Program-made: the position numbers and the translations under genes | Assembly (NCBI GenBank): GCA_963752075.1 | Contig: CAVVWO010000007.1 | Location: 137,984 to 201,983, forward strand | From: an uncultured Acidimicrobiia bacterium | GTDB taxonomy: Bacteria; Actinomycetota; Acidimicrobiia; Spongiisociales; JAENVV01 | Direction of reading: 5' to 3' | Length of the DNA: 64,000 bases | The notes under the pieces: generated by a model | Told to the model about the DNA's origin: nothing | What the model saw: only the letters and a program-made list of their open reading frames with translations | Databases searched by the model: none | Part shown: positions 17,551-18,750 of the stretch, in pieces | How positions within the stretch are numbered: the first letter of the stretch is position 1 | Layout: every line of letters starts with the position of its first letter

Positions 17551-18750
17551 TCACAATCCCACCACCGTGATCGCCACCATGGCTCCAATGAGGACGGGCC
17601 AATAGGTGACCTTTGCGATCAGGTTGTCGCCGTAGGCGACAGCTCGCAGGTGCGTCGACCACGAGGCTGACACCAGGTAGGTGTTCACCGCCACTCCCAG
17701 CAACACCAGGTACATCATGAAGTAGAACCACTCGATGTAGACCACCCCGGATCCGGCGAACTGTTCTCGTAGCTGGATGTGGGCCAACAGCACCACAAAG
17801 AACAGTGCTGACACCGTTCCGATCGTGCCTGCCGTGCTGAAGCCGAAGATCGAACTTCGTTTCGGATCCCGGGTCGTCGTCATCAAGGCGGCGAACGCCA
17901 GCATGGCCACCACGAACAGCGGCACCAGGTTGACGATGAAGGCGTTCTCGAACCTGCGTGTGATCAGCATGTTGTAGCGCAGCTCAGGGAAGTTGGTCTG
18001 ACCGGCGTACTGGTTTATCCCGAAATTCGTGTTGTAGTCGGACACGAAATAGTCGAAGAACGTGTCCTCGCGATCCCAGTCGCCGAGGACGATCGTCTCT
18101 TCCACGCCGAACGTGTCGCCGGGATCGGTGCATGGCGGGTCGGAGCACGGATACGCTTCCAGGTCGGGAACCAATACCGTGTTGGCCGAGAAGTCACGTG
18201 GCCAGATCCGCAGCCAGACCACCTTGTGATCGAACGGATATTGCGAATACTCGAACGGCTGGCGGACCACCCCCTCGAAATACCATCCGATCACCTCACC
18301 GTCGCCCTCGGCGACTCGATACTCGAGTCGCATCGGCACCGACGAATCGACCAATTCGGGAAGGATGAAGCCGACCGGGACGTCGTCTGGTTGCACCTCG
18401 GGGAAGTGCTGCCACACGTAGCCGGTCATGTGGACGTCGGAGGCCGACTCGAACCGGAGCGACTGGACGAAGACACCCGTTGGCATCACCTGGGCGTCGG
18501 CTTCTCCACGCGACTCCCACCGGTTGGAGAGGAACAGGTTGACGGCGTCCTGATCGTTCAGCTGGAATTGTTCGACGTGGGTGCGGTTCTTGGCGACCCA
18601 CAACTGCACGAGAAGGATGCTGAGTGCCAACGTGACGACTCCCGACACCAGCCACCACCGGTTCCGGCGCACTTCCACCTCCGGGTTCGGATCGCCAGAC
18701 CCGCCCAACGTCAGCTGATCGGCACTGTCGCTGCCTGGAACGTCGCTCAT
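17551..18750 (-). CDS. Membrane protein resembling a prokaryotic pentameric ligand-gated ion channel (pLGIC)
   Basis: ATG 18750 forms ATGA with the cap gene stop. Its layout runs as follows:
- An N-terminal anchor, WWLVSGVVTLALSILLVQLWV.
- A soluble domain of about 220 aa containing YSQYPFDHKVVWLRIW, which resembles the (F/Y)PFD loop signature.
- RYNMLITRRFENAFIVNLVPLFVVAMLAFAAL (pre-M1/M1).
- SSIFGFSTAGTIGTVSALFFVVLL (M2).
- VVYIEWFYFMMYLVLLGVAV (M3).
- A short loop, then IAKVTYWPVLIGAMVAITVVGL (M4). Confidence 0.6.
   Translation of the reverse strand: MSDVPGSDSADQLTLGGSGDPNPEVEVRRNRWWLVSGVVTLALSILLVQLWVAKNRTHVEQFQLNDQDAVNLFLSNRWESRGEADAQVMPTGVFVQSLRFESASDVHMTGYVWQHFPEVQPDDVPVGFILPELVDSSVPMRLEYRVAEGDGEVIGWYFEGVVRQPFEYSQYPFDHKVVWLRIWPRDFSANTVLVPDLEAYPCSDPPCTDPGDTFGVEETIVLGDWDREDTFFDYFVSDYNTNFGINQYAGQTNFPELRYNMLITRRFENAFIVNLVPLFVVAMLAFAALMTTTRDPKRSSIFGFSTAGTIGTVSALFFVVLLAHIQLREQFAGSGVVYIEWFYFMMYLVLLGVAVNTYLVSASWSTHLRAVAYGDNLIAKVTYWPVLIGAMVAITVVGL

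Follow-up and report, generated by a model that had tools for sequence, protein, structure and literature searches.

Why would the operon of a contractile injection system (CIS) carry, directly behind its cap gene, a gene whose product resembles a pentameric ligand-gated ion channel (pLGIC)? The question is raised by a 64,000-nucleotide stretch of DNA from an uncultured Acidimicrobiia bacterium (assembly GCA_963752075.1, contig CAVVWO010000007.1, positions 137,984 to 201,983), hereafter the window. It concerns one open reading frame (ORF) of 399 residues, hereafter gene X, for which an earlier reading of the letters alone (the original prediction) had proposed a pLGIC-like membrane protein belonging to the CIS. 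The analysis reported here points to a divergent pLGIC-type subunit with an additional membrane helix, encoded beside CIS genes in widely separated bacteria, and on balance favors a role as a signal-gated channel in CIS firing.

Gene X and its coupling to the cap gene

The following features were assigned to gene X in the window.

17551 to 18750, minus strand: gene X, 399-residue ORF, putative divergent pLGIC-type (Pro-loop) subunit with an extra N-terminal transmembrane (TM) helix
18586 to 18657, minus strand: TM0, residues ~32-55, retained N-terminal TM helix, N-terminus predicted to be cytoplasmic (hydropathy, model, invariant residues)
17959 to 18501, minus strand: predicted extracytoplasmic beta-sandwich, residues ~84-264, equivalent of the pLGIC ligand-binding domain (model; aligned to GLIC residues 13-192)
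18229 to 18240, minus strand: Pro-loop motif YPFD, residues 171-174, between beta6 and beta7 (invariant in the family)
17557 to 17952, minus strand: four-helix TM domain M1-M4, residues 267-398, after the pre-M1 Arg265 (model helices; hhalign)

The plus strand reads TCAT at 18747-18750, which is ATGA on the coding strand. In this four-nucleotide overlap the ATG of gene X is shared with the TGA of the upstream DUF4255 cap gene (18747..19514, minus strand). The 399-residue ORF and its ATGA overlap, as originally described, were therefore read directly in the sequence, with the minus strand as the coding strand. The two peptide strings quoted in that description were located at residues 168-183 (YSQYPFDHKVVWLRIW, which contains YPFD at nucleotides 18229-18240) and residues 258-289 (RYNMLITRRFENAFIVNLVPLFVVAMLAFAAL).

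The G+C content at third codon positions was 0.82 in gene X, compared with an overall G+C content of 63%. Among 8000 candidates scored, 556 homologs were found at E<=1e-3, and conservation across phyla was ~50%. An alignment of 36 family members from several phyla (A1) contained 66 invariant columns. Because of the third-position composition, the hundreds of homologs, and the invariant columns, the gene is taken to be real and, judged by its conservation, clearly functional and under strong constraint. Scans for terminators and promoters and RNA folding 3' of gene X gave no signal over background, and the end of the operon is therefore undefined.

Fold and homology of X

A template-free AlphaFold model of X was obtained with a predicted local distance difference test score (pLDDT) of 77 and a predicted template modeling score (pTM) of 0.70. 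It consists of an N-terminal helix (residues 23-55), eight beta-strands within residues 87-264, and four helices within residues 267-398 (M1, 267-291; M2, 306-329; M3, 338-361; M4, 377-398). This is the beta-sandwich plus four-helix bundle of a full-length pLGIC subunit, as the original prediction had anticipated. When the model was compared with the PDB by Foldseek, GLIC was the best match, followed by the muscle nicotinic acetylcholine receptor and the glycine receptor, in each case as full-length pLGIC subunits. The comparison gave E 7e-12 and probability 1.0 over ~350 aligned columns, with 1032 matches at E<=1e-3 and target-normalized TM-scores of at most 0.68. In the Foldseek alignment X was ~15% identical to GLIC.

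Sequence profiles led to the same family. The family profile searched against PDB sequences gave 31 matches, all of them to GLIC; these were weak (E 0.12-2.5), were anchored at YPFD, and in many cases reached through M3. Aligned by hhalign to the single GLIC sequence, which was checked against PDB entry 2xq3, the family profile scored E 1.4e-4. For a profile-profile comparison, 33 prokaryotic pLGICs found with GLIC were used (alignment A2), all of which carry PF02931 and most of which also carry PF02932. Here hhalign returned a probability of 95.8% and E 7.4e-9 for an alignment of 254 columns that spans beta1 to M3.

The hallmark residues of the superfamily fall into register in these alignments. 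Y171, P172, F173, and D174 are invariant in the 36 sequences and align to the YPFD of GLIC in both hmmsearch and hhalign. The Y/FPxD motif has been described as the best single marker of the Pro-loop receptor superfamily (Jaiteh et al., PMC4795631). The invariant R265 is in register with the pre-M1 arginine of GLIC (R192) and the invariant P277 with its M1 proline (P204); both columns are invariant or nearly so in A2. In loop A, P131 (invariant) and E132 (>=90%), within LPE, align to the Pro-Glu of the GLIC sequence WIPE, while Ile or Leu stands in the gene X family where A2 has an invariant Trp. Since the Foldseek fold match, the profile-profile match, and the hallmark residues in register all lead to this placement, X is very probably a real but very divergent pLGIC-type subunit by both modeled fold and homology. 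The structural part of the original prediction is thereby supported.

Several points tell against this placement. X alone gave no meaningful match in Pfam, PDB sequences, NCBIfam, or PADLOC. The search with Neur_chan_LBD (PF02931) and Neur_chan_memb (PF02932), which had been proposed together with the original prediction, failed in all 36 family members, none of which matched either model even at E<=10; recognition by these models bears on detection and is not in itself a biological trait. The homology rests on one profile-profile comparison and a 36-sequence predicted structure, and the register of M2 relative to GLIC is ambiguous owing to an eight-residue length difference. Precomputed Pfam domains were likewise absent from every listed homolog of gene X. 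Divergent pLGICs may escape inventories that are based on hidden Markov models (Jaiteh et al., PMC4795631).

Membrane topology and differences from known pLGICs

Hydropathy analysis of X gave five TM segments, at residues 34-52, 271-289, 307-325, 336-354, and 378-396. Together with the eight strands of the model and its M3-M4 connection of ~15 residues, these account for the beta-rich domain, the hydrophobic helices, and the short M3-M4 loop that had been noticed originally. The N-terminal segment had been called a signal anchor. A hydrophobic segment is indeed present, but it is a conserved, retained fifth TM helix and not a cleavable signal. Its retention is deduced from the invariant residues W33, L47, and W51, from the pLDDT of ~95 for residues 31-50, and from its place as the connecting helix in domain fusions, where TM0 is the physical link to the dCache hairpin or the TIR domain of the fused paralogs.

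The beta-sandwich of X is predicted to face outward with the N-terminus inside, because of the charge bias around TM0, the dCache hairpin, and the position of the TIR domain at the cytoplasmic N-terminus. Lys plus Arg amounted to 1.56 before TM0 versus 0.64 after it, where Asp plus Glu came to 2.94. Compared with the M2-M3 loop, those between M1 and M2 and between M3 and M4 are more basic. Paralogs of ~700 residues have the order TM1, dCache, TM2, a loop of ~10 residues, TM0, and beta-sandwich. Because the TM2-TM0 hairpin lies between them, dCache and beta-sandwich are both placed outside the cytoplasmic membrane. The opposite orientation, with the beta-sandwich in the cytoplasm, had been considered in view of the periplasmic dCache domain preceding TM0, and was ruled out by the TM hairpin and the charge bias for an inside N-terminus.

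The strongest conservation in the family lies in the extracellular domain and in M2, which is the most conserved of the TM segments (SALFFVV.LAHIQLR). The segment comprising M2 and the M2-M3 loop is ~8 residues longer than in GLIC, as seen from the gap on the GLIC side of the hhalign alignment, so that the pore register of X cannot be assigned. Little of the protein is exposed to the cytoplasm: the N-terminal tail and the M1-M2 and M3-M4 loops of roughly 8-15 residues. The tail is acidic and poorly conserved, with ~31 residues in X and ~5 in proteobacterial members.

X thus combines features that are shared with known pLGICs with features that are not. Like GLIC, ELIC, and DeCLIC, it has a beta-sandwich, predicted to be extracellular, followed by four TM helices, with the YPFD of the Pro-loop, the pre-M1 Arg, the M1 Pro, and the Pro-Glu of loop A in register. 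A short M3-M4 loop is common to X and the prokaryotic pLGICs, and extra N-terminal periplasmic sensor domains occur in DeCLIC as in some members of the gene X family. Unlike known pLGICs, the family has the conserved TM0 in place of a cleaved signal peptide, and its dCache domains are attached via a two-helix membrane hairpin and not directly. X further differs from GLIC in the replacement of the loop-A Trp by Ile or Leu, in the ~8 additional residues of the M2 and M2-M3 region, and in the failure of the Pfam models.

Linkage of gene X to CIS genes in relatives

Linkage was surveyed in 80 species-representative loci with 10-kb flanks, in which the ORFs were clustered and CIS genes were searched with queries from the window and related loci. 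CIS markers were found within 10 kb of gene X in 26 of the 80 loci, and 18 of these 26 contained two or more markers. The presence of the gene in CIS loci of relatives, on which the original prediction depended, was thus observed. On short contigs the linkage is probably undercounted, given the 10-kb flanks and the limited set of CIS queries.

The coupling to the cap gene and the position within a CIS operon, both part of the original prediction, are conserved at two distances. At 75% identity, an Acidimicrobiia metagenome-assembled genome (L001) has kept the order GerE-AAA-Pvc16_N-X with a 38-nucleotide gap between cap gene and X, followed by eCIS_core, sheath, and tube genes. At 55% identity, the same order is found in L086, where the four-nucleotide overlap of cap gene and X recurs and three eCIS_core genes and then a sheath gene follow X. 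A second homolog with 55% identity (L087) lies directly 3' of an eCIS_core gene of 164 residues and is divergent from a complete sheath-tube-spike-gp25 operon. An eCIS_core gene is the immediate upstream neighbor of gene X in L087, L012, and L022.

A different order recurs in proteobacteria. There, a tape measure gene (CIS_TMP, E 1e-116) is followed by an AAA gene, a gene for a protein of ~650-1240 residues, and gene X, with eCIS_core genes before and/or after X. In a neighbor-joining tree of the family, CIS-linked members make up four of the six members of the actinobacterial clade, one of the two cyanobacterial members, and most of the clade of Gamma- and Betaproteobacteria and Desulfobacterota where enough flanking sequence was available.

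CIS loci make up ~1% of a genome and are present in a small minority of genomes. Because linkage was found in 26 of 80 loci across three deep clades against this background, it lies far beyond chance, as a rough judgment that is not corrected for phylogeny.

Two further arrangements were noticed in CIS-adjacent loci. A second, ~700-residue dCache-X paralog is encoded a few kb from gene X or directly after it in five of them (L007:6045-8162, L032:11302-13437, L033:5982-8099, L034:3704-5803, and L071:1164-3260). In Oceanospirillum sediminis, an RVT_1 gene next to a ParE/ParD pair lies between eCIS_core and X (L002:5394-6494); it could belong to a retron or a diversity-generating element.

CIS types and their known membrane proteins

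Among solved structures, the cap protein of the window matches only Cis16 of Streptomyces coelicolor (9gts, E 1.8e-30), and the sheath protein of L001 matches the S. coelicolor CIS sheath (8bky/9gtp) over its full length (E 3.5e-147). From these two matches the CIS of the window is assigned, on sequence grounds, to the Streptomyces type, clade IId. The type IId CIS of S. coelicolor is cytoplasmic, has no tail fibers, and is not released, but kills its own cell under stress (PMC12237407). Death that depends on the CIS is elicited by the pore former nisin, the protonophore carbonyl cyanide m-chlorophenylhydrazone (CCCP), and ultraviolet (UV) light, and the membrane protein CisA (SCO4242) is required for contraction (PMC12237407). 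A reciprocal match to CisA was reported in 75 of 120 type IId genomes (PMC12237407).

X and CisA are both membrane proteins of type IId clusters in which an extracytoplasmic domain is proposed as a signal sensor; for both a pentamer is predicted, and neither is expected in the purified particle. Unlike X, CisA is bitopic, with a disordered cytoplasmic N-terminus of ~280 residues, a Cys-rich region, and a solute-binding-like C-terminal domain, and is encoded after the baseplate genes, whereas X follows the cap gene. X in turn is predicted to cross the membrane five times, lacks a Cys-rich segment, has a pLGIC fold, and extends a tail of no more than ~31 residues into the cytoplasm.

The proteobacterial loci contain a CIS of another kind. 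The protein of ~650-1240 residues encoded next to X belongs to the SalCis20 family (PDB 9r9a_B, E 2.2e-93). Its homologs are immediate neighbors of X in at least 15 proteobacterial loci, and in several of these X starts at most ~70 nucleotides from the end of the SalCis20 homolog. A SalCis20-family alignment (A3) was built from L009:7201-9750, L020:6300-10019, L032:7933-9909, and 11 other loci. A gene of ~850 residues after the AAA gene had been considered as a long variant of the cap protein (Afp16), which would have made the order of cap gene and X universal; this was ruled out by its membership in the SalCis20 family.

SalCis20 is an integral membrane, peptidoglycan-hydrolase-like part of the Salmonella SalCIS, which has been proposed to work attached to the inner membrane and not as a released particle (PMC13266070). 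Like X, it resides in the inner membrane, exposes a large domain to the periplasm, and is encoded in the operon of a CIS that is reported to act at the inner membrane of the producer. It differs from X as a dimer with three C-terminal TM helices and a SleL-like peptidoglycan hydrolase fold, and is unrelated in sequence and fold. Judged by the loci compared, membrane-associated CISs of the SalCIS type appear widespread in marine and wastewater Gamma- and Betaproteobacteria. X accordingly accompanies two unrelated CIS lineages, both of which have been reported to be active at the cytoplasmic membrane of their own producer.

Proposed role of X

A true functional tie between X and the CIS is likely. 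As to its nature, we lean toward X as a membrane channel that is gated by a signal and so licenses or triggers firing of the CIS, a divergent pLGIC recruited to CIS loci. A subset of the family would have been recruited at the end of the locus that holds cap, ATPase, and effector genes, in lineages of type IId and of the SalCIS type. By homology, X would form a pentamer around an M2-lined pore in the cytoplasmic membrane of the producer. An extracellular or envelope cue would gate this channel, and ion flux or local depolarization via X would license or trigger membrane engagement and firing of the CIS. Opening of X would then be an internal equivalent of the external action of nisin and CCCP on the S. 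coelicolor CIS. Through co-translation with the cap and ATPase genes, the amount of channel would keep step with particle assembly. We likewise infer that X would conduct, be gated by a ligand, and act on the CIS. The proposal was made because nisin and CCCP elicit CIS-dependent death, because the ectodomain and M2 are the most conserved parts of X, and because its relatives gain sensor domains. Its more specific forms carry less confidence. The step in which ion flux acts as the trigger is tentative. Rather unlikely is the complete version, with X as a ligand-gated pentameric channel and the physiological trigger, in which a cue opens X and depolarization or ion entry causes CISs of type IId and the SalCIS type to engage and fire.

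A number of observations do not fit easily with a channel dedicated to CIS firing. The gene X family is not specific to CISs, and many members are found elsewhere. A homolog with 75% identity (P0002) has no CIS genes within 10 kb and adjoins a giant RTX-like gene, and an Acidimicrobiia homolog (P0112) stands alone, also with no CIS genes within 10 kb. In 29 of 30 Rhodobacteraceae loci the gene lies directly 3' of a SAM-cyclase-STAND-TPR gene, a different partner, and some copies, including a stand-alone copy in Rhodobacteraceae, have housekeeping or insertion sequence (IS)-rich surroundings. Neither the Streptomyces nor the Salmonella CIS operon, as described, contains an X-like gene, and the SalCIS paper (PMC13266070) mentions none. 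Gene X also lies where cargo genes are usually encoded, beside DUF4157 genes, and could have an effector-related role instead of one as a trigger. Finally, the sheath gene of the window (11420-13017, minus strand) aligns to its 523-residue ortholog in L001 in at least three reading frames, and the small ORF upstream of it (13043-13373, minus strand) is also split. The split sheath may reflect indel errors of the assembly or a decaying or defective CIS.

One alternative is that X serves, like CisA, as a structural adaptor that docks the baseplate or the cap at the membrane, with channel activity irrelevant or lost. Type IId CISs need a membrane adaptor, and as CisA was matched in only part of the type IId genomes, other adaptors may exist (PMC12237407). 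The extracellular domain of CisA is predicted to be pentameric (PMC12237407), as X would be by homology. The translational coupling of X to the cap gene fits as well, and CIS-linked actinobacterial members have a longer acidic tail (~20-40 residues) than the ~5 residues seen in proteobacteria. The cytoplasmic surface of X is tiny, however; it offers a non-conserved tail of at most ~31 residues and short loops where CisA uses ~280 residues, and pure anchoring is disfavored for this reason. The tail shrinks to ~5 residues even in CIS-linked proteobacterial members, and the strongest conservation, in the extracellular domain and M2, is that expected of a gated channel. Other candidates for anchoring are also at hand, namely a Cys-rich, TM-anchored protein at the CisA position of the window (see below) and SalCis20 and SalCis13 in the SalCIS loci. 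The adaptor role is considered unlikely.

X could instead be a product of the effector region, either as channel-forming cargo or toxin or as an immunity or helper protein of neighboring DUF4157 (eCIS_core) toxins. Adjacency to DUF4157 genes has been used to nominate toxins of extracellular CISs (eCISs) (PMC8213781). X shares with such toxins the cap/ATPase end of the locus, where eCIS cargo clusters, and often a directly adjoining eCIS_core gene (L087, L012, L022, and others). The TM-containing Sco4256 is a proposed cargo of a type IId CIS (PMC10020575), and the window and its 75%-identical relative carry different genes downstream of X, as is seen for cargo regions. X is nevertheless unlike eCIS-associated toxins. 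Pfam scans revealed no DUF4157, packaging, or toxin domain in it, and its signal-anchor helix with an inside N-terminus and an extracytoplasmic domain of ~200 residues predict co-translational insertion into the membrane of the producer rather than loading into the tube. The module is common outside CIS loci, where it is fused to dCache and TIR domains, which is unlike a CIS-specific toxin or immunity gene, and its ~50% conservation across phyla would be unusually high for one. We regard an effector-related role as unlikely too, if anything a little more so.

A release or lysis device is improbable. X would in this case be a regulated pinholin whose opening collapses the membrane potential and activates wall hydrolases of the SalCis20 type, for breach of the envelope or release of the CIS. 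Its genes do adjoin, and sometimes directly follow, SalCis20 homologs with their periplasmic SleL-like hydrolase fold in proteobacterial loci, and eCISs are thought to exit by lysis although dedicated lysis genes have often not been identified (PMC8213781, PMC13266070). With 399 residues and a large ectodomain X does not resemble holins, however, and no endolysin gene is adjacent in the actinobacterial loci. Type IId CISs are not released (PMC12237407), and no secretion or release of SalCIS was detected (PMC13266070). This reading also overlaps with the depolarization model and differs from it only in the downstream step.

Just as improbable is that X is a mobile stand-alone sensor channel that landed in a variable CIS region without any functional tie: many members, including a 75%-identical one, are unlinked to CISs, IS elements flank some copies, and variable genes adjoin X at the margin of the conserved CIS set, but the four-nucleotide cap overlap is kept between orthologs that are only 55% identical, linkage extends over 26 of 80 loci in three deep clades and two unrelated CIS lineages with several gene orders, and a dCache-X paralog lies in the same CIS-adjacent region in five loci.

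The favored reading, a signal-gated channel that licenses or triggers firing, has no counterpart in the literature searched, which yielded no paper that joins a contractile injection system with a ligand-gated ion channel. This agrees with the original view of X as an undescribed CIS accessory protein, as the papers on CisA and SalCIS describe other membrane proteins. A survey of eCISs ranked accessory genes by their Pfam domains (Geller et al., PMC8213781) and would miss the X family, since it has no Pfam model. Inventories of pLGICs relied on signatures (PMC4795631) that the family does not match. By these sequence comparisons, X would represent a pLGIC branch with five TM helices that is new to the superfamily, and among the membrane components associated with CISs it would be of a new type.

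The known triggers of the S. coelicolor CIS are limited to artificial membrane insults (nisin and CCCP) and UV light. In the cap/ATPase operon, X offers a concrete, testable candidate for the signal-input step in two independent CIS lineages that act at the membrane. The family of ~1,700 clusters at 50% identity, which curated profiles have missed, would widen the architectural range of pLGICs, and its dCache and TIR fusions hint at roles in bacterial cell-fate or conflict systems. If the proposal is true, X would make this the first contractile injection machine with chemical gating. A large pLGIC-like branch, so far unrecognized and plugged into TIR and cyclase-STAND cell-fate modules as well, would thereby gain its first assigned cellular role, and a trigger under the control of a ligand would offer a convenient means of operating CIS-based delivery devices.

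The gene X family outside CIS loci

An exhaustive profile search returned 1744 cluster representatives (50% identity) at E<=1e-3, of which 1118 reached E<=1e-30. Length classes were taken from the best 150 of the 1744 matches, 148 of which were newly listed. Among these 148, 55 had 330-460 residues, similar in size to X, and 77 had at least 600 residues with the module at the C-terminus. A dCache sensor was confirmed in the six long members sampled, and about half of the best-scoring members probably carry a periplasmic dCache domain.

A second type of fusion is P0142 (L088:4215-5759), a protein of 514 residues with an N-terminal TIR_2 domain (E 3.6e-25) joined to TM0 and the pLGIC-like module. 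The TIR domain occupies the position of the cytoplasmic N-terminal tail, and the neighborhood consists of ordinary housekeeping genes. From these architectures, the family appears to behave as a portable membrane sensor or channel module that takes on periplasmic sensors and cytoplasmic signaling or death domains.

Relatives of gene X numbered 133 when 185,579 species were scanned with one genome each. Their scattered occurrence takes in Rhodobacteraceae, Nitrosomonas, many Gammaproteobacteria, Desulfobacterota, cyanobacteria, Bacteroidales, Nitrospira, and Acidimicrobiia.

The Rhodobacteraceae relatives share a conserved neighborhood of three genes, namely the cyclase-STAND-TPR gene, gene X, and a gene for a multidomain protein of 1205 residues. 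The first of these encodes 1095 residues with SAM, class III cyclase (PycC-like), AAA_16 STAND, and TPR regions and precedes X (L059:4373-7660 and 28 other loci in Ruegeria and Roseovarius). The multidomain enzyme gene lies opposite X in all 30 loci (L046:6103-9720 and 29 others); the facing protein of 1205 residues contains phytochelatin-synthase-like, glutaredoxin, flavoprotein, ankyrin, and GGACT domains. The partner gene recalls Pycsar-like systems, in that its cyclase domain, fused to a STAND ATPase and TPR repeats, scored E 3e-18 against Pycsar cyclase models. Unlike Pycsar-like effectors, X lacks a nucleotide-binding domain on the cytoplasmic side and has no PADLOC match, and the likeness is confined to the gene pairing. 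Apparent X-like fragments upstream of X in the Ruegeria loci were an artifact of single-linkage clustering and showed no similarity to X at E<2.

The CIS locus of the window

Gene X is the last gene of an operon with the order GerE-orf-GerE-AAA-cap-X. The remaining features of the locus are listed below.

21413 to 23164, minus strand: two GerE/LuxR-type regulators separated by a small ORF, first genes of the AAA-cap-X operon (GerE E 5e-14)
19486 to 21408, minus strand: CIS AAA+ ATPase (Afp15/Cis15-like), upstream in the same operon (Pfam AAA E 1.3e-27)
18747 to 19514, minus strand: cap/tail-terminator gene, Pvc16_N/DUF4255, Cis16-like (Pfam E 2.9e-27; 9gts Cis16 E 1.8e-30)
15571 to 17307, minus strand: 578-residue protein downstream of X, variable slot (no Pfam, NCBIfam, or significant PADLOC match)
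13588 to 15515, plus strand: convergent eCIS_core (DUF4157) protein and 408-residue protein, candidate effector module (eCIS_core E 1.9e-31)
1685 to 13373, minus strand: CIS structural operon (Pfam, tblastn synteny with L001, NCBIfam CIS12_fam/TIGR02242)
1225 to 1692, minus strand: candidate mini-CisA, ~155 residues, two zinc-ribbon CxxC pairs and a C-terminal TM helix (translation; TM score 3.38)

The regulators and the small ORF between them (GerE1-h115-GerE2) are syntenic with L001, and the same arrangement is present in L086. In L001, the corresponding position holds a 71% identical ortholog of the AAA+ ATPase. Of the genes that separate X from the sheath operon (13588-17307), the eCIS_core gene is the only one in common with L001. 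The 408-residue ORF begins at the eCIS_core stop codon. The proteins of 408 and 578 residues match no family, and the region they occupy resembles a variable slot for cargo.

The structural operon comprises genes for a small ORF, sheath, tube, a further small ORF, tube, an 869-residue protein, tube-LysM, a VgrG-like spike, baseplate J, and a Cis12-like protein. The mini-CisA candidate starts at an internal ATG of the ORF 1225..1989 and lies directly 3' of the Cis12-like gene. In this position, and in its Cys-rich and TM layout, it resembles Sco4242/CisA (PMC10020575), of which it lacks the extracellular C-terminal domain. By this analogy, the ~155-residue protein at 1225-1692 could be a minimal membrane anchor. 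Shortly beyond the CIS regulators, the plus strand encodes a 600-residue fusion of AP_endonuc_2 (a xylose-isomerase-like TIM barrel) with a LigD primase-polymerase (24350-26152).

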